Shown one piece after another: positions 35,148 to 49,250 of a stretch of DNA of 60,101 nt. The DNA lies in contig JBHLON010000021.1 of NCBI GenBank assembly GCA_048940445.1, positions 1 through 60,101 of the forward strand, read 5' to 3'. Source of the stretch: Promethearchaeota archaeon. GTDB lineage: Archaea; Asgardarchaeota; Lokiarchaeia; Sigyniarchaeales; SOKP01. Position 1 is the stretch's first letter; every line of letters begins with the position of its first letter. Made by a program: the position numbers and the translations under genes. The notes beneath the pieces were generated by a model. The model worked only from the letters and a program-made list of their open reading frames with translations, did not search any database and was not told the DNA's origin.

Positions 35148-38100
35148 ATGATGAATATGCAATTAATTGAACATAGAAAAAAGTCGATTAAAACCATTTT
35201 ATTAATTGGATTATTTTTATTTTTTAATCTTACTCCAATTATGCAATATCTAATCCCCAACGGAACAGAGAAAGATAAAATTCATGATGATATAACTCCC
35301 TCCCTCTCTGAGACGAATAAAGCATATATTCATATTGATAATAATTGGACTGAGACGGCAGCTTTTTATGATTGGTGCATAGGCTTAGGATCTTGGAATG
35401 ATCCGTTTATCATAAAAGATTTAGAAATACATATAAATAGTTCAATTGCAGGGATTTACATCAATAACTCTCAAAATGTTTATTTTATTATAAAAGATTG
35501 TTTAGTGAGCAATAATTCTACGAAAGCATTAAGTGCTGGGATAAGATTGGAAAATTGTATTAATGGTAGAATTACGGATTGCGTATCTAATCGCAATTCA
35601 GTTGGGATTATGCTTATTAATAATTATAATTCATCCATTGATAATTGTAATGTCTCTTCTAATAATTTCGGAGTATACATTGAACAGAGTAGTAGTGATA
35701 TTAGCATCTATGAAAATAATATCTTAAACAATGTAATTCAAGGAGTCAATATTACAAATTCTAACGATAATTTAATCTACAATAACAATTTTAAAAACAA
35801 TACAATGCATGCAATTGATTTGGGTGCAAATAATGCTTGGAATAAAGAGGATCAAGGAAATTATTGGGATGATTATGATGGGAAAGATGCGGATGATAAT
35901 GGAATAGGAGATTCTCCATACATAATTTCTGGTTCTGCAGGAGGGCACGATAATTATCCCATTTGGTGGGATGCCCCTGTTATTAATGTAATTTCCCCCC
36001 TCCCCTACTCATTATTTGGAGTTTTACCGCTTAACTTTAGTGTCTCTTTAGAAGAAGGAGTAAGCCATAGTTGGTGGTATATGATTGATACAAATCCAAC
36101 CAAGAATCAATTCATCACAAATGGGTCAATTGATCCGCTTCTTTGGAGTCTAATGGTAAACGGTTCACATACTATTTTCTTTTATGTCAATGATAGTAGA
36201 GGATACGAAGATTTTGAAGCAATAGTTATTTATAAGGATATTGAAACACCTTCGATTGACATTATCTTTCCTGAAAGTAATTTCATATTTGGAAATAGTT
36301 CATGTAATTATACTATTGTCATCCTCGAATCGAATCTTAATTCAACTTGGTACAAAGTAAATAATGGATCTTCAGTTTACTTTAATGGAATTTCTGGCTT
36401 GAATTATGGTGTTATTTCCGAAAATGAATGGACTTTACAACCTAATGGCTCTATTGTAATAGAATTCTTTGCTAATGACACTATGGGCAATCTAGGAAAG
36501 ATTAACGTAACTGTATACAAAGATATTATCCCACCCATTATTGAACTCGATAAACCAACTCAATTTGAAATCTTTGGGATGGGTCCTCCAGAATGTAATG
36601 TATCTTTTTATGATATAAACGGAGTGAACACAACATGGTATTATTTAACTGATGGAATTACAATAACTCCAACGAGAGAATGGACCGGTGGTATTTATAC
36701 TGAAGATTGGAATGCAATGTCTAACGGAACGGTGACCATTTTCTTTTATGCTAATGATACATTAGGCAATATTGCGTCAGTTAATATATCGATTTACAAA
36801 GATATCATTGCTCCCAGTATTCTTATTAGTGAACCACATCCATACGATCTAGTTGGAGGTAATCCACCTATATGTGATGTGACTTTTTATGATAGAAATG
36901 AAGTCAATACTACCTGGTATCAGTTAACTAATGGTACTTTCACCACAAATTCACGAATATGGACTGGAACAATTGATACTAACGATTGGAGTATGCTACC
37001 GAACGGTACAATTACGATTATTTTTTATGCAAATGATAGCTTAGGAAATATTAATTCTGAAAGTGTTGTTATTTATAAGGATATTATATCTCCTTATATT
37101 ACAATTAATGAGCCAAAAACCAATGAAATCTATGGTCAAAATCCACCTGATTGTGATTTGACTCTATATGATATTAATTTCATTGATAACGTATGGTATA
37201 AATTAACCGATGGAACCACAACTACGAGCGTTCGTGATTGGATGGGTGCTATCAATCTGAATGATTGGAACGCCATGAATAATGGCACTGTCACCATCAC
37301 TTTTTATGCAAATGATACCTTAGGCAATATAGCGACAGCTAACGTTTCTGTATATAAAGACATTATACCTCCCTCTATAACTATTGATAAACCAAATCCT
37401 CATGAAGTATTTGGTGAATCTCAACCAGAATGTAACGTATTATTCGAAGATACTAATGGAGTGGATTCCACATGGTACCAACTAACTGATGGTACAATCA
37501 CCACTGCTGTTCGCGAATGGACTGGAATAATTGCTCCTTCCGATTGGACAACATTAGGCAATGGCACAATCACTATCCTTTTTTATGCAAATGATACTCT
37601 GGGCAATGTAGCGAATAATAATGTCTCAGTTTATAAGGATATCATTGCTCCAATCATAACTATAATTAAACCTGGTCTCCATGATGTATTTGGTGAATCT
37701 CAACCAGAATGTAACGTATTATTCGAAGATACTAATGGAGTGGATTCCACATGGTACCAACTAACTGATGGTACAATCACCACTGCTGTTCGCGAATGGA
37801 CTGGAATAATTGCTCCTTCCGATTGGACAACATTAGGCAATGGCACAATCACTATCCTTTTTTATGCAAATGATACATTAGGCAATATAGCGAATACTAA
37901 TGTCTCAGTTTATAAAGATATCATTTCTCCTTCCATAATTATTAATGAGCCAAAATCCTATGAGCTCTACGGCCAAAATCCACCTGATTGTGATTTGACT
38001 CTATATGATATTAATTTCATTGATAACGTATGGTATAAATTAACCGATGGAACCACAACTACGAGCGTTCGTGATTGGATGGGTGCTATCAATCTGAATG

Positions 38101-41100
38101 ATTGGAACGCCATGAATAATGGCACTGTCACCATCACTTTTTATGCAAATGATACCTTAGGCAATATAGCGACAGTTAACGTTTCTGTATATAAAGACAT
38201 TATACCTCCCTCTATAACTATTGATAAACCAAATCCTCATGAAATATTTGGTCAGGCTGTCCCTGATTGTGATTTAACCTTATATGATAGAAATTCTATT
38301 GATTTTGCATGGTATCAGTTAACAAATGGTATTTTTACTACTGCAATTCGTGAATGGACAGGTATTATTCACATTGATGACTGGAATGCTATGCCTAATG
38401 GAACAGTGACTATTATCTTTTATGCTAATGATACATTAGGCAATATAGGGACATCTAGTGTATCAATCTATAAAGATATCATTGCTCCCAGTATTCTTAT
38501 TAGTGAACCACATCCATACGATCTAGTTGGAGGTAATCCACCTATATGTGATGTGACTTTTTATGATAGAAATGAAGTCAATACTACTTGGTATCAGTTA
38601 ACTAATGGTACTTTCACCACAAATTCACGAATATGGACTGGTTTAATTGATGTCGATGATTGGAATATGATGGTGAATGGGTCTGTGATTTTCATATTAT
38701 ATGCAAATGACAGCGTTGGAAACATAAACTATGAGAGTGTTCTCTTACATAAAGATATTATATCCCCAATCATTATTGTTAACGAGCCTCACTCTCATAA
38801 TGTTTTTGGTCAAATTCCTCCTGATTGTGATTTAACCTTATATGATAGAAATTCTATCGACTACGTGTGGTATCAGTTAACAGATGGCACCCTGACTACA
38901 ACAATTCGCGAATGGACGGGTATTATTCATATTAATGATTGGAATGCAATGTCTAACGGAACAGTGACTATCTCTTTTTATGCTAATGATACTGTTGGCA
39001 ATATAGGGGTATCTAATATATCAATCTACAAGGATATAATAGGTCCGGATATTAATATCATCAATCCAATGCCCCATAGTGTATTTGGGATAAATCCACC
39101 AATATGTGATGTGACTTTTTATGATAGAAATGAAGTTAGTACTACTTGGTATCAATTAACTAATGGCACTTTTACTACAAATTCACGGATCTGGTCTGGA
39201 TCAATTGATATTGATGATTGGAATTTGATGGCAAATGGATCTGTGATTTTTATATTATATGCGAATGATAGTGTTGGAAACATAAATTTTAACAGTATTT
39301 TCTTATATAAAGACATTATATCCCCAATAATCATTATTAATGAGCCTCAATCTTACGAGATCTTTGGCCAAATTCCTCCTATTTGTGATTTAACCTTATA
39401 TGATATTAATTTCATTGATAATGTATGGTACGAGTTAGCCGATGAAATTACAACTACAAATTCTCGTAACTGGACTGGGATTATTCATATTGATGATTGG
39501 AATGCAATGTCTAACGGAACAGTGACTATATTTTTTTATACTAATGATACATTAGGTAATATAGCTACTGCTAATATTTCAGTATATAAAGATATTATAT
39601 CTCCAATCATCATTATTAATGAGCCTCAATCTTACGAGATCTTTGGGCAAATTCCTCCTTATTGTGATTTAACCTTATATGACGGAAATTCAATTGATGA
39701 TGTATGGTATCAGCTAACCGATGGGACCATTACTACAGCAATTCGTGAATGGACTGGTATAATTCACAATGATGATTGGGGCGCAATGTCTAACGGAACA
39801 GTGACTATTACATTTTATGCTAATGATACTGTTGGCAATATTGGAACAGCTAATGTTTCAATTTACAAAGATATAATTGGACCATATATTAATGTCATCA
39901 ATCCGGCCTCCCATAGTGTATTTGGGATAAATCCTCCTGTTTGTGATGTAACTTTTTATGATAGAAATGATGTAAATACTACGTGGTACCAATTAACAGA
40001 TGGTATAACCACGACATCTCCAAGAATTTGGAGTGGCTGGATTTATATTGATGACTGGAATGCAATGTCTAATGGATCAATCACTCTTATCTTTTATGCT
40101 AATGATACCGTTGGTAATATCGGGATGATTGAAGTTTCAATTTACAAAGATATAATTGGTCCATATATTAATATAATTAATCCAACACCCAATTCCGTAT
40201 TCGGAAAACCAGTGCCTAGTTGCACCGTAACTTTTTATGACATTAATGGTTTAGATACAACATGGTATCAATTAACTAATGGTGTTATTACAACTCCTCT
40301 CCGAGAATGGACTAATTTTATCTATACAAGTGATTGGAATGCAATGCCTAATGGAACTGTTTTTATTGTCTTCTTCGCTAATGACACGCTCGATAATATG
40401 ATTTCAGTCAATGTTAGTATATATAAAGATAGTATCTCTCCAGTAATCATTATAAATGATCCGCAACAAGGTCAGTTATATGGAATAACAGCTCCAATGA
40501 TTAATATAAGCGTAAGTGATGCCCATCTTGAAAGTGTCTGGTATCAATTGGATAATGGGTCTATTATCACTCCATATCAAGAATGGTTCGGTTCTATTTC
40601 TCAAGAAGATTGGGACCTGATAGGAAATGGAACTGTAATTGTTCGGTTTATTGCCTATGATTCTGTTAATAATTTAGCCTCAGCTACATTGACTCTCAGG
40701 AAAAATATATTTGATCCCGTTATTATTATATTAGATCCTGTCGAGAATGAATTAACAGGTTTAAATCCACCAGACATAATTCTTTATATTAGTTCTGCAT
40801 CTACAGATACAATTTGGTATCAGATATATAATGCTACTTTCTCTACATCAAGTATAATATGGGACGGCTCCATAAATCTTATAGCTTGGCAAACCTTTGG
40901 AAATGGATCATTAAGCATAATATTTTATATGAACGACACTCTTGGAAATGTAGGATTTGATGTTGTTCTATTGAGAAAAGACACCATATCACCAATTCTT
41001 TTAATCAACTCTCCTACGCCTTTTACCTTATATGGGCTTACTCCTCCAAACGTAAGTATTACTTGTTATGACGAAAACTCAATCTCCTCTATTTCTTATC

Positions 41101-42338
41101 AATTGACAAATGGTGTAACCACTACGTCTTCAAGAATTTGGGATGGCTCGATTCATATTGATGATTGGAATGCTATTGGCAATGGTACGGTAACTATTAT
41201 ATTTTGTGCTGAAGATGTTGTTGGCAATCAAGTTTTTGCTAATCTTACAGTCAGAAAAGACATTATTTCTCCTGATGTGTTTATTTATTATCCTAAAACA
41301 GGTCAATTATATGGTTATCAAAAGCCTTCAGTCTTCTTTTATGTAATTGAAGGAAGTGGCGTTTCTGAGATTTCATATCAATTGATTAGCGATACCTCAA
41401 GTTCTGCAATAATAAATTGGAACGGTGAAATTGCCCAAAGCTTATGGAATGAATTTGGTAACGGCACAATTACTATTTTTATTTATGCTATAGACATCAT
41501 GGGGAATCAAGGCGTTGATTTTGTTATAGTTCGGAAGGATATCATTGCTCCAACCATAATTATAATTAAACCCGGATTATACGATGTGTTTGGTGAATCT
41601 CAACCTGAATGTAATGTATCATTTGAAGATATTAATGGAGTGCATTCCACATGGTACCAACTAACTGATGGAACATTTACCACAAATTCACGAATCTGGT
41701 CTGGATCAATCGATCTTGATGATTGGACAGCATTTGGTAATGGCTCAATCACAATCATTTTTTATGCAGATGATATTTTAGGTAATGTAGCGTCTGCTAA
41801 TGTCTCAGTATATAAGGATATCATTTCTCCATCTATCTCAATACTATCTCCAGCTAAATATCAGAAAATTGGACGAGATGCTCCATTTTTTGAATTAAAT
41901 ATCTTAGAAGGAAACTTAGACTCTTGCTGGTATAGAATTCTTGGTATTGATACGATTATTCTTTTTTCTGGATCCAACGGAACGATTGATCAAATATTAT
42001 GGGAAACAATATGGGACAATACAGCTTTGAATGGAACTATTACCATTCGCTTTTTCGCAGAGGATCGATTGCATAATCTTAATTATAGTGACGTTACTGT
42101 CTTAAAATATTATGAGTCAGAAACGCCCCCTCAACTCCCCACATTTCCAATTGAGCCTCTAGATCTTTTAGCCCTTGGATGTTTAGGTGGTATAGCGATT
42201 TCGCTCCCTTTAATTGTTACAAGGAGTCGAACTTATAAATCAAGTGATAAAAAGAAGAAACATACATTACAGCGAGTACTTATTCTATCAATTTTTCTAT
42301 TAACTTTAGTAACCATAGTAGTTATCACAACTTACTAA
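35148..42338 (+). CDS. Giant cell-surface protein: signal/TM, NosD-like right-handed beta-helix, ~22 Ig-like repeats, two C-terminal TM helices
   Basis: G.GSWNDPFII, Asn-rich beta-helix, GNYWDDY.G.D...GIGD.PY, repeated KD...P.I.I..P...W...NG...FYAND..GN. Confidence 0.9.
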   Translation: MMNMQLIEHRKKSIKTILLIGLFLFFNLTPIMQYLIPNGTEKDKIHDDITPSLSETNKAYIHIDNNWTETAAFYDWCIGLGSWNDPFIIKDLEIHINSSIAGIYINNSQNVYFIIKDCLVSNNSTKALSAGIRLENCINGRITDCVSNRNSVGIMLINNYNSSIDNCNVSSNNFGVYIEQSSSDISIYENNILNNVIQGVNITNSNDNLIYNNNFKNNTMHAIDLGANNAWNKEDQGNYWDDYDGKDADDNGIGDSPYIISGSAGGHDNYPIWWDAPVINVISPLPYSLFGVLPLNFSVSLEEGVSHSWWYMIDTNPTKNQFITNGSIDPLLWSLMVNGSHTIFFYVNDSRGYEDFEAIVIYKDIETPSIDIIFPESNFIFGNSSCNYTIVILESNLNSTWYKVNNGSSVYFNGISGLNYGVISENEWTLQPNGSIVIEFFANDTMGNLGKINVTVYKDIIPPIIELDKPTQFEIFGMGPPECNVSFYDINGVNTTWYYLTDGITITPTREWTGGIYTEDWNAMSNGTVTIFFYANDTLGNIASVNISIYKDIIAPSILISEPHPYDLVGGNPPICDVTFYDRNEVNTTWYQLTNGTFTTNSRIWTGTIDTNDWSMLPNGTITIIFYANDSLGNINSESVVIYKDIISPYITINEPKTNEIYGQNPPDCDLTLYDINFIDNVWYKLTDGTTTTSVRDWMGAINLNDWNAMNNGTVTITFYANDTLGNIATANVSVYKDIIPPSITIDKPNPHEVFGESQPECNVLFEDTNGVDSTWYQLTDGTITTAVREWTGIIAPSDWTTLGNGTITILFYANDTLGNVANNNVSVYKDIIAPIITIIKPGLHDVFGESQPECNVLFEDTNGVDSTWYQLTDGTITTAVREWTGIIAPSDWTTLGNGTITILFYANDTLGNIANTNVSVYKDIISPSIIINEPKSYELYGQNPPDCDLTLYDINFIDNVWYKLTDGTTTTSVRDWMGAINLNDWNAMNNGTVTITFYANDTLGNIATVNVSVYKDIIPPSITIDKPNPHEIFGQAVPDCDLTLYDRNSIDFAWYQLTNGIFTTAIREWTGIIHIDDWNAMPNGTVTIIFYANDTLGNIGTSSVSIYKDIIAPSILISEPHPYDLVGGNPPICDVTFYDRNEVNTTWYQLTNGTFTTNSRIWTGLIDVDDWNMMVNGSVIFILYANDSVGNINYESVLLHKDIISPIIIVNEPHSHNVFGQIPPDCDLTLYDRNSIDYVWYQLTDGTLTTTIREWTGIIHINDWNAMSNGTVTISFYANDTVGNIGVSNISIYKDIIGPDINIINPMPHSVFGINPPICDVTFYDRNEVSTTWYQLTNGTFTTNSRIWSGSIDIDDWNLMANGSVIFILYANDSVGNINFNSIFLYKDIISPIIIINEPQSYEIFGQIPPICDLTLYDINFIDNVWYELADEITTTNSRNWTGIIHIDDWNAMSNGTVTIFFYTNDTLGNIATANISVYKDIISPIIIINEPQSYEIFGQIPPYCDLTLYDGNSIDDVWYQLTDGTITTAIREWTGIIHNDDWGAMSNGTVTITFYANDTVGNIGTANVSIYKDIIGPYINVINPASHSVFGINPPVCDVTFYDRNDVNTTWYQLTDGITTTSPRIWSGWIYIDDWNAMSNGSITLIFYANDTVGNIGMIEVSIYKDIIGPYINIINPTPNSVFGKPVPSCTVTFYDINGLDTTWYQLTNGVITTPLREWTNFIYTSDWNAMPNGTVFIVFFANDTLDNMISVNVSIYKDSISPVIIINDPQQGQLYGITAPMINISVSDAHLESVWYQLDNGSIITPYQEWFGSISQEDWDLIGNGTVIVRFIAYDSVNNLASATLTLRKNIFDPVIIILDPVENELTGLNPPDIILYISSASTDTIWYQIYNATFSTSSIIWDGSINLIAWQTFGNGSLSIIFYMNDTLGNVGFDVVLLRKDTISPILLINSPTPFTLYGLTPPNVSITCYDENSISSISYQLTNGVTTTSSRIWDGSIHIDDWNAIGNGTVTIIFCAEDVVGNQVFANLTVRKDIISPDVFIYYPKTGQLYGYQKPSVFFYVIEGSGVSEISYQLISDTSSSAIINWNGEIAQSLWNEFGNGTITIFIYAIDIMGNQGVDFVIVRKDIIAPTIIIIKPGLYDVFGESQPECNVSFEDINGVHSTWYQLTDGTFTTNSRIWSGSIDLDDWTAFGNGSITIIFYADDILGNVASANVSVYKDIISPSISILSPAKYQKIGRDAPFFELNILEGNLDSCWYRILGIDTIILFSGSNGTIDQILWETIWDNTALNGTITIRFFAEDRLHNLNYSDVTVLKYYESETPPQLPTFPIEPLDLLALGCLGGIAISLPLIVTRSRTYKSSDKKKKHTLQRVLILSIFLLTLVTIVVITTY
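36519..42110 (+). repeat. Intragenic tandem repeat, unit about 279 bp (93 aa), with near-identical blocks
   Basis: Unit starts at 36519, 36798, 37077 and onward at 279-bp spacing; 37407-37597 = 37686-37876; 37137-37406 ~ 37974-38243; 36798-36967 ~ 38472-38641. Confidence 0.95.
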
Positions 42339-44158: not shown

Positions 44159-46414
44159 TTATTTGATAGGTCGTGAATTCGCTTGAAAAATAGGACCAAT
44201 GAACTGGGAGTATAAAATGCTATACTGCATTTGATTTGATACAATTGAAATCATTTCGCTTTCTTTATCAGTAGCAGGTCCAATGATTACTTCCTCAGCA
44301 TCACGGGTAACCGCAAAGAATTCTCCTGTGCTACTGAGTTGTCTAAACTGAATATTTCCCAAAGCCATCATTTTTCTAATAATATCACCATATTGGCCCA
44401 TATCCCAATGGCTAGTGAGTAGGAATCTAGCTGCCTTTTTCTGATAGGCATATTCACTAACAACTTGTAAAACTTCAGGGATAACAGATGGCATGACCAC
44501 AATTATAGAGGATTTAGTTCTAAAGACGGCATCCTTAATTGCAGCGATCATAGCTTCTTTACCTACAATTGGCCAAGTTGTTACCTCCGCTAATTCTGGG
44601 ATTGCTGCTGAAGCACTGAAGATATCCTTTAATTTTGATTCATTCTTTTCTGCTAACTCTGTTGCATCATCAATAGAATTCATAAACCTTAAGGTAAAAT
44701 CAGCAATTGCATCCTTGATATTTTGAGTCGTATCTCTTGTTGTATTAGATAAGCTATTTTGGAGGGTTTTAGCATTTTGTTCATATTTAGATTTATGATC
44801 TGTGAGCATTTGACTTAAATTTCTATCTAAATCCGCTGATTCATCACCCCATAAACTAATTTCATTTGTAATTTTTTCAGACGCATCTGCTTTTCCAGCA
44901 ATAAATTTATTGTCAACTTCTCTAATCCAATTTGATTTTGTTTGTTTTACCTCAGTATCAAAACTAGTATAATGGGTTAAGGAATCGTCTTTATGTTTGT
45001 TAATTGCTTCATCATATTGTCTGTGATGTTGTTTAAGTGAATTTTCTAATCCATCTTTTAACTTTATTGTAGTGTCTGAACAATCCTTCACACCACTTGT
45101 GAGCGTATTATTAATTTCACCAGCCATATCAGTAGCTAATGTCTCTAGTTGAACATTAATTGTTTCTTGAGCCTTTTGGTCAAGATCAGTAGTTTCACTT
45201 ACTACATTATCATTTTCCTTAGTCATTATATCAGTAATTTCACCTTTTAAAGTATCATTAGTATCTCTTGTATCTTTGATATAGTTCTCACTCACATTTA
45301 CGAAATCGTCTTTCATTGGTTCAGTATACTTTAAAACGTTTTGGATTGTAGTCTCATGTCGAGCTTTATATTTTTTCTTTTTGCCCATCCAAAAGAATCC
45401 TTTCTTTGCCATATCGCCTGAAAAGTCAGTAAATCGGTTAGCATGTTCTAAAAGATTCTCGATAAGAGTTAATGTCATGCTTTTAAATTCATTCGTTTGT
45501 TCAGTCAAAATACGGTGTCTCTCATCAACGGTTGCCTTCAAATTAGTAGAAAGTGTGTCAGTTGTGTTTTTCAAATGATTAAGATGTTCCTTCAAAAGAC
45601 GAGAAATTCTTTCTTTTAAATCAGTAATAATTTTATCCATTCGTTCTAAATATTTCTCAAGAATTTGCTCCATTCTAGGTTTTAAATCACTGGCTATAGT
45701 TTTATGTCTCTCCACATGATTATCTAAATCTGTTTTTAAATCTTTTTCTAAATCGTCAACTCGTTTAGAAAAATCATTTAGTAGATCAGATATAAGAGAA
45801 GTTAAATTGTCTTTTGTTTTATTGACAGTTGTCTCATTCTCCTTAATTTTAGAGTCAGAAATAGTTTTCAGATCTGAATTTAATGTATCTAAAATCTTAT
45901 GGAGATTTTCTTCCAATGTTTTGGAAGTATCAGTAAATCTATTTCGAGCTTCATTGATTCGTTCTCTTTTATTATTATTTTTTGTGTCAGAATCAGAAAA
46001 GAATGCTTTAATTTGGTTATCAACAGCTGTCTCAACCTCATTAATGCTTTTATCTTGAATTGCTTCTAATTTTTCAAATCGCTTTGCTTGATCAGCTAGG
46101 ATGTGATCTTTAATTTTTCCAATTTCTTCTCTGAAATCTTCTGATTCTCCAATATATAATTCAAAATAAGGTTCAAGTGGGATAAATCTATCCACAATCC
46201 CAGTTACCTTTTTAAGAAACCCTTTTTCAACTAACCAAGTAGTAATCTCTAAAATTGTTTCATAAGTGAGCTCTTCATGTTCATCCATTAGGGTTAAATA
46301 TACTTCCGATGCGGTAGCTCTCGGTACTCTCAAATAGACTAAATAAACAAGGATTTGCTCCTCAGTGAATCCATATCTAGTGAAAATTTCCTTAGTAATT
46401 TCTTTTAGAGTCAT
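44159..46414 (-). CDS. TrmB-like wHTH + long helical/coiled-coil insert + C-terminal PLD-like (TrmB effector) domain
   Basis: N-terminal GFTEEQILVYL.L...TASEV...LVEKGFL...RF.P.EP; C-terminal W.IVG.EAM......KSSIIVVMP...RD.EEVII. Confidence 0.8.
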   Translation of the reverse strand: MTLKEITKEIFTRYGFTEEQILVYLVYLRVPRATASEVYLTLMDEHEELTYETILEITTWLVEKGFLKKVTGIVDRFIPLEPYFELYIGESEDFREEIGKIKDHILADQAKRFEKLEAIQDKSINEVETAVDNQIKAFFSDSDTKNNNKRERINEARNRFTDTSKTLEENLHKILDTLNSDLKTISDSKIKENETTVNKTKDNLTSLISDLLNDFSKRVDDLEKDLKTDLDNHVERHKTIASDLKPRMEQILEKYLERMDKIITDLKERISRLLKEHLNHLKNTTDTLSTNLKATVDERHRILTEQTNEFKSMTLTLIENLLEHANRFTDFSGDMAKKGFFWMGKKKKYKARHETTIQNVLKYTEPMKDDFVNVSENYIKDTRDTNDTLKGEITDIMTKENDNVVSETTDLDQKAQETINVQLETLATDMAGEINNTLTSGVKDCSDTTIKLKDGLENSLKQHHRQYDEAINKHKDDSLTHYTSFDTEVKQTKSNWIREVDNKFIAGKADASEKITNEISLWGDESADLDRNLSQMLTDHKSKYEQNAKTLQNSLSNTTRDTTQNIKDAIADFTLRFMNSIDDATELAEKNESKLKDIFSASAAIPELAEVTTWPIVGKEAMIAAIKDAVFRTKSSIIVVMPSVIPEVLQVVSEYAYQKKAARFLLTSHWDMGQYGDIIRKMMALGNIQFRQLSSTGEFFAVTRDAEEVIIGPATDKESEMISIVSNQMQYSILYSQFIGPIFQANSRPIK

Positions 46415-46653
46415 AAGTATTTCTCCAATTTTTAAATTCGGTTTATGTAAAAATTAAAATTAATATAATTATAAATGAATTCCTTTTCAATAATTTTATT
46501 ATATTTTAAAGTGTATAATAATATTTTCAAAATTATTATATTAAAACTTAAGGATACGGTTTGCTGATCTAATTCAATTTAGCTCAATCAAGTCGTAATT
46601 TGAAAGAATTATTTAGTTCTTTGTTAATTGGGAAAAATTATTCCTCAATCCTT

Positions 46654-46661
46654 TTTATATA
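46654..46661 (+). promoter_or_regulatory. Putative archaeal TATA box for the 46702 gene pair
   Basis: TTTATATA about 40 nt upstream of ATG; weak evidence in AT-rich DNA. Confidence 0.4.
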
Positions 46662-46701: not shown

Positions 46702-47388
46702 ATGAAAAAATTAAGTAAAATTCTTTTGAGTACAATGTTTTTAATGATGGTTGTTTCTACTTTTGCTTCATTGAATGTCGTCGCTATCGAATCTCCTGAT
46801 GAATCTTATAATATTCCTATTGACACTGCCCAAAGAACGGTAGAGGCAAATACAAGAACGATGTTTCGTTTTCGGCAACAAACTCAATTGACATTCCAAG
46901 CTAATGTAAATTTAGAATTAAATATGGATTGTCAGGCATTACAAATTGGAGTCAAAGATTTTATAATTGAGATTGATGGAGATCAAAATCTACAGATGAA
47001 TATGACCTGCACAAGAGAAGAAATTCAATTGGGACTGCAAATGGGAAATACATACAGAATTAGAAATCGCAACATGTATCAATATCAAGAAGGTTTTTGT
47101 TGTTATATTGAGTGCAATGGAACCTTCTTACAAGCGAGATTAAGAATACAAGCAACTAACCAGAACAGAGTAGGGACATGGGCTTATTATAACGAAGCAA
47201 CAAATGAGTGGACAGCCGTTCCAACAAGTATTGAAGATGGATATTTGACTGCACTCGTGGATCATTTTTCATACTGGACCATTTTAATTCCGGAAGACAC
47301 TACTCCATACGTAACCATAGGAGTTAGTATAGCCGTTGTAGCTGTTGTCGTTATTCTGGGTGTACTCTATTACAAGAAAAGAAAATAG
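46702..47388 (+). CDS. Secreted, C-terminally anchored surface protein with HFS motif
   Basis: Signal peptide, beta-rich ectodomain, WAYYNE...W...PT...YLTALVDHFSYW, TM, KKRK tail. Confidence 0.8.
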   Translation: MKKLSKILLSTMFLMMVVSTFASLNVVAIESPDESYNIPIDTAQRTVEANTRTMFRFRQQTQLTFQANVNLELNMDCQALQIGVKDFIIEIDGDQNLQMNMTCTREEIQLGLQMGNTYRIRNRNMYQYQEGFCCYIECNGTFLQARLRIQATNQNRVGTWAYYNEATNEWTAVPTSIEDGYLTALVDHFSYWTILIPEDTTPYVTIGVSIAVVAVVVILGVLYYKKRK

Positions 47389-47457
47389 AACATTATAAAT
47401 ATATTTTAAAACAATAATTTTTTTTATTTTTTAATAAAGTAAAAAATTTGAGAATAA

Positions 47458-48708
47458 ATGGGCTTAAATATTTTAAAGAACAATAAAAGTCGTAGACTTA
47501 GTTTAATAGTTTTATTCATTCTTATTTTCCAATTTACATTTTTTATATATCAAGTTTCAGCCAGAAAAGAAGTTATTCCTGCGTTTTCTATCACTGATGA
47601 AATTAATCCAAATGAAACAGTGAATTATGAATTCCCCAATAACATTATTTTTGGGATATCTACAAATGTTTTTATAGATATTAGTATTGATTATGAAAAT
47701 AGAATATCAAACCGTCAAATATTTTTAATAATCGAAAATTCATCACCAATTTCTCTAAACATTACATCAAAAATAGATATGGGTGGTTTTAACTTGACCC
47801 AGCAACCCAATGCTCCTCGAAAAGGAAATAATCAATATCAATATAGATATAATTGTATTTATCGAATTTCTTCTAATGTAACCATTGAAAATATTACAAT
47901 TCGAAGCTTAAAAACAGGTTTTTATGGTTTAACTCCGACCAATCAATATACAATAGGGCTTTATGAAACTTCTCAAGGTTCATGGCAACTTATAGATACA
48001 ACTCAAACAATAAATGAAACAAGTTCTGAAAATTATTTAGAAAGTTCGCTTTTAAATGTTGAGGCAAATACCGATTATTATATTACTTACTTTGAGATAA
48101 CTGAGGTCTTTGAAGGATGGTTTTGGATAATCTTAATCATAATTTTAGCAGCAGCTTTTGGGTCTATAGCAATCTTAATATCCAAAAAAGATTATTTCCA
48201 TTACCTTAGGACTAGGCAAACACCTATAGAAAAAGGGGCTCATCGATTAAGCTTGGAGGAAGTCTTAGAAAATGAGAATAGAAATTTAATAATAGATTTA
48301 GTGCTTAAAAACCCGGGAATTCATTTCAATGAACTTTTAAGAGAGACAGGAATAGCCGCTGGGAATCTTGTATGGCATCTAGATATATTAGAAACTTATA
48401 AAGTAATAGGTAAAAAGAGAATAGGAAAGTTTATAGTTTATTTTCCATATTATCAAAAAAATCCGATATCAAATTTAGATGTAGAGCTAAGTAAGAGTAA
48501 ATTGACTTTAGAAATCTTGGAAATGATAGAAAGAGAGCCTGGATTATGGAATAACTTGATCACTAAACGCATGAAAGTGGACCATAAGACTATTCAGTAT
48601 CATGTAAATAAATTAAAAGAATTAGGATTGATTAATTTTAGAAAAGATGGACGGAAGAAAAAGATTTATCCTAATCTTGATGCGGAATATTTCAATAATA
48701 AAGATTAA
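47458..48708 (+). CDS. Membrane-tethered transcriptional regulator: ectodomain + TM + tandem winged-helix domains
   Basis: Signal/TM, ectodomain, TM WFWIILIIILAAAFGSIAIL, then LENENR..I...V..NPGIHFNEL...WHL..LE and I.REPG......I.YHV.KL...G. Confidence 0.88.
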   Translation: MGLNILKNNKSRRLSLIVLFILIFQFTFFIYQVSARKEVIPAFSITDEINPNETVNYEFPNNIIFGISTNVFIDISIDYENRISNRQIFLIIENSSPISLNITSKIDMGGFNLTQQPNAPRKGNNQYQYRYNCIYRISSNVTIENITIRSLKTGFYGLTPTNQYTIGLYETSQGSWQLIDTTQTINETSSENYLESSLLNVEANTDYYITYFEITEVFEGWFWIILIIILAAAFGSIAILISKKDYFHYLRTRQTPIEKGAHRLSLEEVLENENRNLIIDLVLKNPGIHFNELLRETGIAAGNLVWHLDILETYKVIGKKRIGKFIVYFPYYQKNPISNLDVELSKSKLTLEILEMIEREPGLWNNLITKRMKVDHKTIQYHVNKLKELGLINFRKDGRKKKIYPNLDAEYFNNKD

Positions 48709-48746: not shown

Positions 48747-49250
48747 TTGATGGATCCTGAAAAGCTTTTACAATTTTTAAAAAACCGAAGATCTATTCGG
48801 AGTTTTCAAGAAAAGAAGATCTCTGATAAAGAAATAGGGATGATCTTAGAGGCAGGTAGATGGGCTCCAAGTGCCTCAAACAGACAACCTTGGGAGTTTA
48901 TTGTTGTTAAGAGTGAATCAAAAAGGCAAGAACTCGCAAGAATCGCAATTTATGGTAAATTTATTAGAGAGGTTCCTGTTTTAATTGCTATTATCGGAAA
49001 AATAAACCAAAACCCAAAATGGTACATTCAAGATACATCATTAGTGTCGATGAATATGATGCTTATGGCCTGGTCATTAGGAATAGGAACTTGCTGGATT
49101 GGTTCAATGGATCGGGATAAGGCAAAACAAATACTTGGACTTGGAAAAAATGATTATGTTCTTACAATCTTACCAATGGGCTACATTGAAGGCGAAATTC
49201 CACAACCTACTAACAGAAAGGCTTTAGAAAAAATAACCAAGGAAATTTAG
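48747..49250 (+). CDS. Nitroreductase family protein
   Basis: RRSIRSF, APSASNRQPWEF, LGIGTCWIG. Confidence 0.94.
   Translation: MMDPEKLLQFLKNRRSIRSFQEKKISDKEIGMILEAGRWAPSASNRQPWEFIVVKSESKRQELARIAIYGKFIREVPVLIAIIGKINQNPKWYIQDTSLVSMNMMLMAWSLGIGTCWIGSMDRDKAKQILGLGKNDYVLTILPMGYIEGEIPQPTNRKALEKITKEI

Follow-up and report, generated by a model that had tools for sequence, protein, structure and literature searches.

Two adjacent genes of a Promethearchaeota archaeon (assembly GCA_048940445.1, contig JBHLON010000021.1) raise the question of how a small surface protein and a membrane-tethered transcription regulator, encoded head to tail, could work together. The DNA analysed, hereafter the window, is a stretch of 60,101 nucleotides (nt) of this contig, and the two genes, hereafter gene 1 and gene 2, occupy positions 46702 to 48708 of its forward strand. 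An initial annotation of the window had taken them for a new transmembrane signalling system built by duplication, in which like ectodomains pair at the surface and the regulator senses the amount or state of its partner. That annotation missed what appears to be the main feature of the locus, namely that the shared ectodomain has an autoproteolytic fold of the GAIN-B/MAIN type (MAIN, Microbial Autoproteolysis INducing), and that the HF↓S motif at which such folds are cut is kept in gene 1 only. In combination, these two features point to a cleavage- or shedding-based sensor and not to a simple chaperone partner. The two genes are therefore read here, with moderate confidence, as a conserved and autoregulated transmembrane signalling pair, formed of a self-cleaving sensor and a membrane-tethered regulator.

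Gene structure and membrane topology

Both open reading frames (ORFs) are present in the window with the following layout, in which the domain limits derive from the ORFs, AlphaFold2 (AF2) models and, in addition, structural matches for gene 1 and Pfam matches for gene 2.

46702–47388 (+): gene 1 (P0001, 228 aa); signal peptide 1–29, MAIN/GAIN-B-like β-sandwich 30–197, transmembrane (TM) helix 204–222, YYKKRK tail
47458–48708 (+): gene 2 (P0002, 416 aa); signal peptide or anchor 15–33, predicted pseudo-MAIN ectodomain ~37–216, TM helix 224–242, near-invariant juxtamembrane segment, tandem winged helices 273–330 and 348–408

The product of gene 1 has two hydrophobic segments, at residues 11–29 and 204–222, which correspond to a secreted-type N-terminus and a C-terminal surface anchor; the latter is a TM helix followed by KKRK, rather than a sortase signal or S-layer homology (SLH) repeats. 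Between them lies a single domain of about 170 residues, as judged from Pfam and from the AF2 model, the confidence of which (predicted local distance difference test, pLDDT) exceeds 90 over most of the ectodomain. In gene 2 the hydrophobic segments are at residues 15–33 and 224–242, and the ectodomain is again modelled with pLDDT >90. The N-terminus of this protein is basic, as is the juxtamembrane stretch that follows the second segment, and it is because basic residues stand before the first hydrophobic segment and after the second that the winged helices are placed in the cytoplasm. The proposed layout of the initial annotation, with gene 1 ending in a TM helix and KKRK and gene 2 continuing through a TM helix into tandem winged-helix domains, is thereby borne out. 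The possibility that the pair is one split or frameshifted gene was considered and rejected, since in over 60 genomes both ORFs carry a signal peptide and a TM helix of their own.

Homology of the two ectodomains

Taken as a single pair, the two ectodomains are only marginally alike (BLASTP E 0.009, 20% identity). The relationship becomes clear once families are compared. Alignment of the two ectodomain profiles by hhalign gives a probability of 85.9% and an E value of 5e-6 over 142 columns. Moreover, a hidden Markov model (HMM) of the gene 2 ectodomain scores a median of 26 bits, and a top score of 42, against all 87 gene 1 ectodomains, while the gene 1 model scores a median of 24 bits against all 120 gene 2 ectodomains. 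The best of 1,740 and of 2,400 composition-matched shuffles reached 8.3 and 7.9 bits with the same ectodomain-only models. An origin of the similarity in composition or in TM segments is accordingly rejected, since models confined to the ectodomains exceed every shuffle.

Wider searches give the same result. In whole-genome searches the gene 2 ectodomain matches gene 1 orthologues in nine other genomes, with E values down to 4.8e-8, and the converse is also true. Among 1.8 billion representatives, the gene 1 profile recovers membrane-tethered winged helix-turn-helix (wHTH) proteins with E values of 2e-62, 8e-16, 2e-6 and 1e-4. The order of strands is also the same in the AF2 models of the two proteins. 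The ectodomains of gene 1 and gene 2 are homologous, and the likeness along their length that had first been seen by eye is that of paralogues: weak between the two sequences, far above chance by hhalign and by family HMMs.

Linkage across genomes

Conservation of the pair was surveyed in 301 genomes of the phylum. In the family to which the window belongs, both genes occur in 60 of 68 genomes, and the same eight genomes lack the one and the other; where both occur, they stand head to tail on one contig in all but one genome (~59 of 60). The pair is also found in the sister family, which belongs to the same taxonomic order. In an independent species-representative set of Promethearchaeota, a homologue of gene 1 lies 38–101 nt upstream of the regulator, in the same orientation, at 64 of 65 assessable loci; the named records in this set are all Asgard metagenome-assembled genomes of the Promethearchaeota type, some of which are labelled otherwise by their submitters. 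Since kin are not independent of one another, these counts describe conservation and are not statistics.

Beyond this range, the arrangement recurs in three far more divergent metagenomic lineages (L002, L049 and L050), as the successive genes P0263 and P0274, P0231 and P0344, and P0359 and P0313, the last pair adjoining a gene for an Arf-family GTPase. The initial annotation had named beforehand three findings that would speak against it, namely a lack of ectodomain homology, a lack of linkage elsewhere and winged helices predicted to be extracellular; in each case the opposite was found.

At one locus (G273:C206:3034-3581) the gene 2 orthologue, which lies beside an intact gene 1, is broken by in-frame stop codons, as might result from decay into a pseudogene or from an error in the assembly.

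A probable self-cleaving fold in the gene 1 ectodomain

What, then, is the shared domain? In a structural search against representatives, the gene 1 model is matched to the GAIN domains of BAI3 (Z 7.0), CELSR1 (Z 6.2) and CD97 (Z 6.0), with 119–130 residues aligned at root-mean-square deviations of 3.7–4.6. In the same ranking are the FIIND of CARD8 (Z 5.9), the ZU5 domain of ankyrin (Z 5.5) and the FIIND of NLRP1 (Z 4.8), with GPR110, GPR97 and GPR56 lower in the list. The top rows of a Foldseek search are likewise GAIN domains and ZU5, none of them below E 0.001. GAIN, FIIND and ZU5 domains form one class of self-cleaving β-sandwiches. For gene 2, the fold searches used the whole model, such that winged-helix matches filled both and they are uninformative on its ectodomain.

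A link in sequence comes from a library-wide search, in which the gene 1 profile matches a segment of large bacterial surface proteins just before their SLH or other wall anchors (E 9e-10 to 3e-4). The matching block is the C-terminal part of the profile, W-A-Y-Y-D-E ... H-F-S-x-W-T-I-L; the bacterial proteins carry H-F-S or H-L-T, and in P0320 the match overlaps the Pfam GPS domain (PF01825). The Z values alone are not decisive, and the MAIN assignment is made firm by the motif, by the position of the site and by this link to bacterial surface proteins. On these three grounds gene 1 would be a minimal, TM-anchored protein of the MAIN type, with a GAIN-B-like fold that is supported but not proven. 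It stands apart from the eukaryotic GAIN/GPS proteins, in that its sequence has no match to PF16489 or PF01825, its model has no helical GAIN-A subdomain and it has a single TM helix in place of seven.

The gene 1 domain also occurs in other forms. Tandem arrays of two or three copies are present in the relatives P0208, P0212, P0215, P0217 and P0302, each copy ending in DHFSxWTxL, which would place several cleavage sites in one chain. In the homologues P0071, P0079, P0081 and P0086, a loop of the β-sandwich holds an insertion of 40–60 residues that consists nearly throughout of CxC repeats (e.g. CECQCQ..CECECECKC) and could be metal-binding or redox-sensing. A second gene-1-like family, of ~300–320 aa and with an insertion between query residues about 138 and 134, is encoded elsewhere in several genomes and not beside the regulator (e.g. 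G192:C18, G077:C41 and G117:C28).

The cleavage motif and its loss in the regulator

The two ectodomains differ at the turn between their last two β strands, where the following codons stand.

47263–47271 (+): codons for H188-F189-S190 of gene 1, the predicted autoproteolysis site (F189↓S190), from conservation, the model and aligned cleaved fragments
48076–48084 (+): codons for Y207-Y208-I209 of gene 2, at the alignment position of HFS in gene 1 and in those regulator relatives that have it, with the nucleophile absent

Among 41 gene 1 homologues S190 never varies, and H188 as well as F189 is kept in at least 90%. The motif is flanked in the model by strands 181–186 and 191–197, and solved N-terminal cleavage fragments that end at P1 (NLRP1 1080–1212, GPR56 to residue 382 and ADGRF1 to residue 566) align exactly up to gene 1 residue 189. 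The corresponding sites, S1213 in NLRP1, L382/T383 in GPR56 and T567 in ADGRF1, are confirmed in the literature (PMC3210808, PMC13123842, PMC9046087). The motif itself is H-F-S in PIDD and Nup98 and SF↓S in CARD8 and NLRP1, and cleavage of bacterial MAIN domains at HF↓S has been shown by Edman degradation and by S-to-A mutants (bioRxiv 10.64898/2026.05.12.724683). Most likely, to judge from motif and model, gene 1 cuts itself between F189 and S190.

In gene 2, by alignment, D206-Y207-Y208-I209-T210 stands where gene 1 and the HFS-bearing relatives have D-H-F-S-T. None of 61 Loki-type regulator orthologues has H-x-S/T at the cleavage turn, all of them showing (Y/F)(Y/F)(I/V/L/F)T. From its sequence, then, the ectodomain of gene 2 would be a homologous pseudo-MAIN domain that is unable to cut itself. 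That all three residues of the catalytic site are replaced in gene 2, while the fold and the last strand are kept, argues that the HFS of gene 1 is selected for its chemistry and not for packing alone.

It is here that the reading of the initial annotation, a ToxR/ToxS-like pair without cleavage, has to be weighed. In such a pair HFS would be merely structural, gene 1 would chaperone or stabilise the ectodomain of the regulator, and the heterodimer would sense a ligand or a folding state. Paralogous ectodomains and strict linkage suit this arrangement, as does a design in which the oligo-T tract described below leaves the partner in excess; moreover, some GAIN and ZU5 domains are uncleaved, and the buried Phe has a structural role. 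The arrangement is nonetheless quite unlikely: S190 is invariant and H188 nearly so, a paralogue of the same fold dispenses with all three residues, and nearly all tested HFS-bearing MAIN domains cleave.

Two rare relatives have an HFS domain on the regulator. In P0274 the regulator itself carries HFS (SHFSTF) and still has an HFS-bearing partner upstream; a search for its relatives recovered only P0274 itself. In P0220 an ectodomain of the gene 1 type is joined via a TM helix to the cytoplasmic part of the regulator, and the gene adjoins a nitroreductase gene downstream, as gene 2 does. P0220 is known from one short contig, in which its frame is open to the contig start through a stretch that resembles a signal peptide.

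The cytoplasmic part of gene 2

Two wHTH domains are found in the cytoplasmic part of gene 2, PF24266 (HTH_HVO_0163_N) at residues 273–330 (E 2.6e-15, 56.7 bits against a cut-off of 31) and HTH_24/MarR at residues 348–399 (E 4e-10, 39.4 bits against 21.9). Both scores are above the curated Pfam cut-offs, as is characteristic of a tandem winged-helix protein of the HVO_0163 type. A search for functional literature on HVO_0163 returned one incidental mention only, and a search on archaeal membrane-tethered winged-helix factors returned nothing relevant.

The top Foldseek matches to this part of the protein include the tandem winged-helix proteins TFIIIC, ScpB and ESCRT-II, from which it might be argued that gene 2 is not a transcription factor at all, its winged helices forming a membrane protein scaffold like those of ScpB and ESCRT-II, while the palindrome at the gene 1 promoter (see below) belongs to another regulator. 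This is very improbable: the Pfam matches that exceed the curated cut-offs are to DNA-binding helix-turn-helix families, the C-terminal winged helix matches the structures of ArsR/MarR repressors at Z ~11, and a palindrome of the kind bound by dimers is conserved at the pair's own operon.

The genome also encodes a 239-aa paralogue of the regulator (G000:C121:1627-2346, locus L004), which shares the juxtamembrane segment and the tandem winged helices but lacks an ectodomain and has several TM helices at its N-terminus. Its gene comes after that for a 201-aa membrane protein. From its architecture, the cytoplasmic module is therefore reused with other membrane sensors.

Candidate control elements in the DNA

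How might the regulator be connected with its own operon? Three elements of the non-coding DNA bear on this question.

46625–46651 (+): AATTGGGAA-N6-TTCCTCAAT, an imperfect palindrome that is conserved and abuts the TATA box on its 5' side; candidate operator at which a winged-helix regulator could bind as a dimer (promoter conservation, position weight matrix)
46652–46661 (+): TTTTTATATA, resembling a TATA box, in the promoter of gene 1 and ~45 nt upstream of the ATG (sequence; conserved beside the palindrome in orthologues)
47418–47432 (+): T8-A-T6, an oligo-T tract that follows the stop codon of gene 1 and is likely to be an archaeal terminator or attenuator between the genes (conservation)

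In 20 of 21 promoters of orthologues, taken from several genera, the palindrome keeps its position while its flanks diverge, and a strict regular expression finds it in 48 of 64 further loci. It lies directly beside TTTTTATATA, which is presumably an archaeal TATA box. When the organism's own genome is scanned with the position weight matrix, the gene 1 promoter scores 42.3 bits and the next best site 25.2 bits. No second convincing palindrome site was found in this genome, as the 25.2-bit site (contig C94) is inside a response-regulator-like coding region and matches to the core with one mismatch are barely more frequent than in the control. The simplest reading of the palindrome is autoregulation by a dimeric winged-helix protein, and gene 2 would encode the protein in question. 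The palindrome overlaps the position of the TFB recognition element (BRE), so that activation and repression are not distinguishable.

The oligo-T tract is similarly constant, with T runs of 8–13 in 21 of 21 loci and of at least 7 in the spacers of all 64 orthologous pairs. The T-rich tract to which the initial annotation had drawn attention, as a possible means of lowering expression of the regulator, is thus both present and conserved. Oligo-T terminates archaeal RNA polymerase. The product of gene 2 is accordingly likely to be made in smaller amounts than that of gene 1, whether through read-through or from a weak spacer promoter.

These elements may also be read in terms of two proteins that are not physically coupled. 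The regulator would then sense through its own ectodomain, gene 1 would be its main target and a shed surface protein, and the shared fold would be the trace of an old duplication. In favour of this, the gene 1 promoter has the one strong palindrome of the genome, and the oligo-T tract, together with a possible TATA-like spacer element, suggests that transcription is in part separate. Set against it are the near-perfect adjacency and co-absence of the genes, in many genera and in three distant lineages, and the natural forms in which the HFS domain is on the regulator itself; both observations agree better with a domain that is part of the sensing step. An uncoupled pair is, in consequence, unlikely.

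Proposed mechanism

With a self-cleaving sensor and a tethered regulator as the preferred reading, a sequence of events can be suggested. Gene 1 would cut itself at F189↓S190, leaving an N-terminal fragment of ~160 residues in non-covalent association with a stub, which would comprise the last β strand (SYWTIL), the TM helix and the KKRK tail. At the surface, the pseudo-MAIN ectodomain of gene 2 would associate with that of gene 1, and the oligo-T tract would keep the regulator scarcer than its partner. Loss or unfolding of the gene 1 fragment, caused by shear, contact or damage to the envelope, might then bring the regulator into another state, in which it would act on the palindrome beside the gene 1 TATA box either while membrane-bound or after intramembrane cleavage, the two being equally possible.

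Taken to its full extent, this scheme would be an archaeal counterpart of mechanotransduction of the kind known from adhesion G protein-coupled receptors (GPCRs) or Notch. In other words, self-cleavage and a force- or contact-driven loss of the fragment would be sensed by the paralogous pseudo-domain that a membrane-bound transcription factor carries, and this factor would then be activated, possibly by intramembrane proteolysis. This extension is offered tentatively, as a possibility that is rather less probable than the signalling pair itself.

Several points weigh against the scheme. The structural Z scores of 5–7 are in the range in which the search tool warns of a mere common β-sandwich arrangement, and gene 1 has no match to the Pfam families GPS, GAIN or ZU5 at E values up to 1, nor indeed a significant match to any Pfam family. 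It is without the large adhesion or enzyme passenger domains that are typical, if not strictly defining, of MAIN proteins, which leaves the source of any pull unexplained. Three site-2 protease genes of the M50 type are present in the genome, which makes intramembrane cleavage possible, but they are unlinked to the pair. Another factor, such as the product of a divergently transcribed TrmB-like gene, could be what binds the palindrome, and an operon that is its own sole target would leave the physiological output unexplained.

Neighbouring genes

A nitroreductase gene (48747–49250, +) begins 38 nt after gene 2; it is also downstream of the regulator in L001, L047 and L048, and may be co-transcribed with the pair. 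On the other side, and divergent from gene 1, positions 44159–46414 (−) encode a 751-aa protein that resembles a winged helix at its N-terminus, continues as a very long coiled coil, for which there is only a weak match of the apolipoprotein type, and ends in a globular part. A gene for 751 aa is at the same position in two distant relatives (L047 and L048), and the one here may thus share the intergenic control region with gene 1. Upstream of this region is an ORF of 2396 aa (35148–42338, +).

Relation to known systems

No paper on this gene pair was found. MAIN domains, of which that of Bacillus subtilis YfkN is an example, are known from one 2026 preprint, in which Brogan and Rudner (bioRxiv 10.64898/2026.05.12.724683) describe them as devices that release enzymes and adhesins from the surface and state that the C-terminal fragment has not been linked to signalling. 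Conserved across a whole Asgard order, the present locus ties a MAIN-type domain to a transcription regulator by strict linkage, by paralogy of the sensor domain and, rarely, by direct fusion, and it may be the first link between a microbial GAIN-like domain and signalling into the cell. If signalling by the pair proceeds in the proposed way, surface sensing that is based on cleavage and feeds into gene control exists in archaea, and the logic of GAIN-domain receptors is older than their coupling to seven-transmembrane (7TM) proteins. Were the mechanotransduction scheme also to hold, microbial GAIN-like domains would have their first role in signalling, in the archaea most closely related to eukaryotes. 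The pair is small and lends itself to direct tests that use a domain of 170 residues, a single point mutant and a DNA site of 27 bp.

The comparison with ToxR/ToxS made in the initial annotation survives in part. As in ToxR/ToxS and the CadC-type systems, a one-pass DNA-binding membrane protein is encoded beside a small one-pass partner with an outside domain, and this two-gene logic stands. The topology of gene 2 is the opposite one, however, with the ectodomain N-terminal and the DNA-binding part C-terminal, and its winged helices are a tandem of the ArsR/MarR-like kind in place of the OmpR type. Moreover, gene 1 is paralogous to the sensor domain of the regulator and carries a cleavage motif, whereas ToxS is not a paralogue of ToxR.

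RsgI/SigI of Clostridia (PMC10328401) offers a prokaryotic transmembrane route with a comparable sequence of events, in that the extracytoplasmic domain of RsgI cleaves itself, the fragments stay together and the signal passes to a transcription factor via a site-2 protease. It differs from the pair here in using an unrelated fold (SEAL) with an Asn-Pro site, and an anti-sigma factor, all within a single protein.

With the MAIN proteins, gene 1 shares a GAIN-B-like β-sandwich, H-F-S before the last strand, a signal peptide and a surface anchor right after the domain. Unlike them, it has no adhesion or enzyme passenger beside the domain, relies on a TM helix for anchoring instead of sortase or SLH, and has as its partner a transcription regulator, to which it is fused in rare relatives. 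The best structural matches are to the eukaryotic GAIN domains of adhesion GPCRs and to the ZU5/FIIND domains of PIDD, NLRP1 and CARD8, the cleavage P1 residues of which align with F189; the hydrophobic strand that would follow the cut, S-x-W-T-I-L, is similar to the tethered-agonist pattern T-x-F-A-V-L-M. In contrast to these proteins, gene 1 has neither the GAIN-A subdomain nor the GPS cysteine pattern, and neither a 7TM nor a death-fold output, its proposed output being instead a separate one-pass winged-helix regulator.

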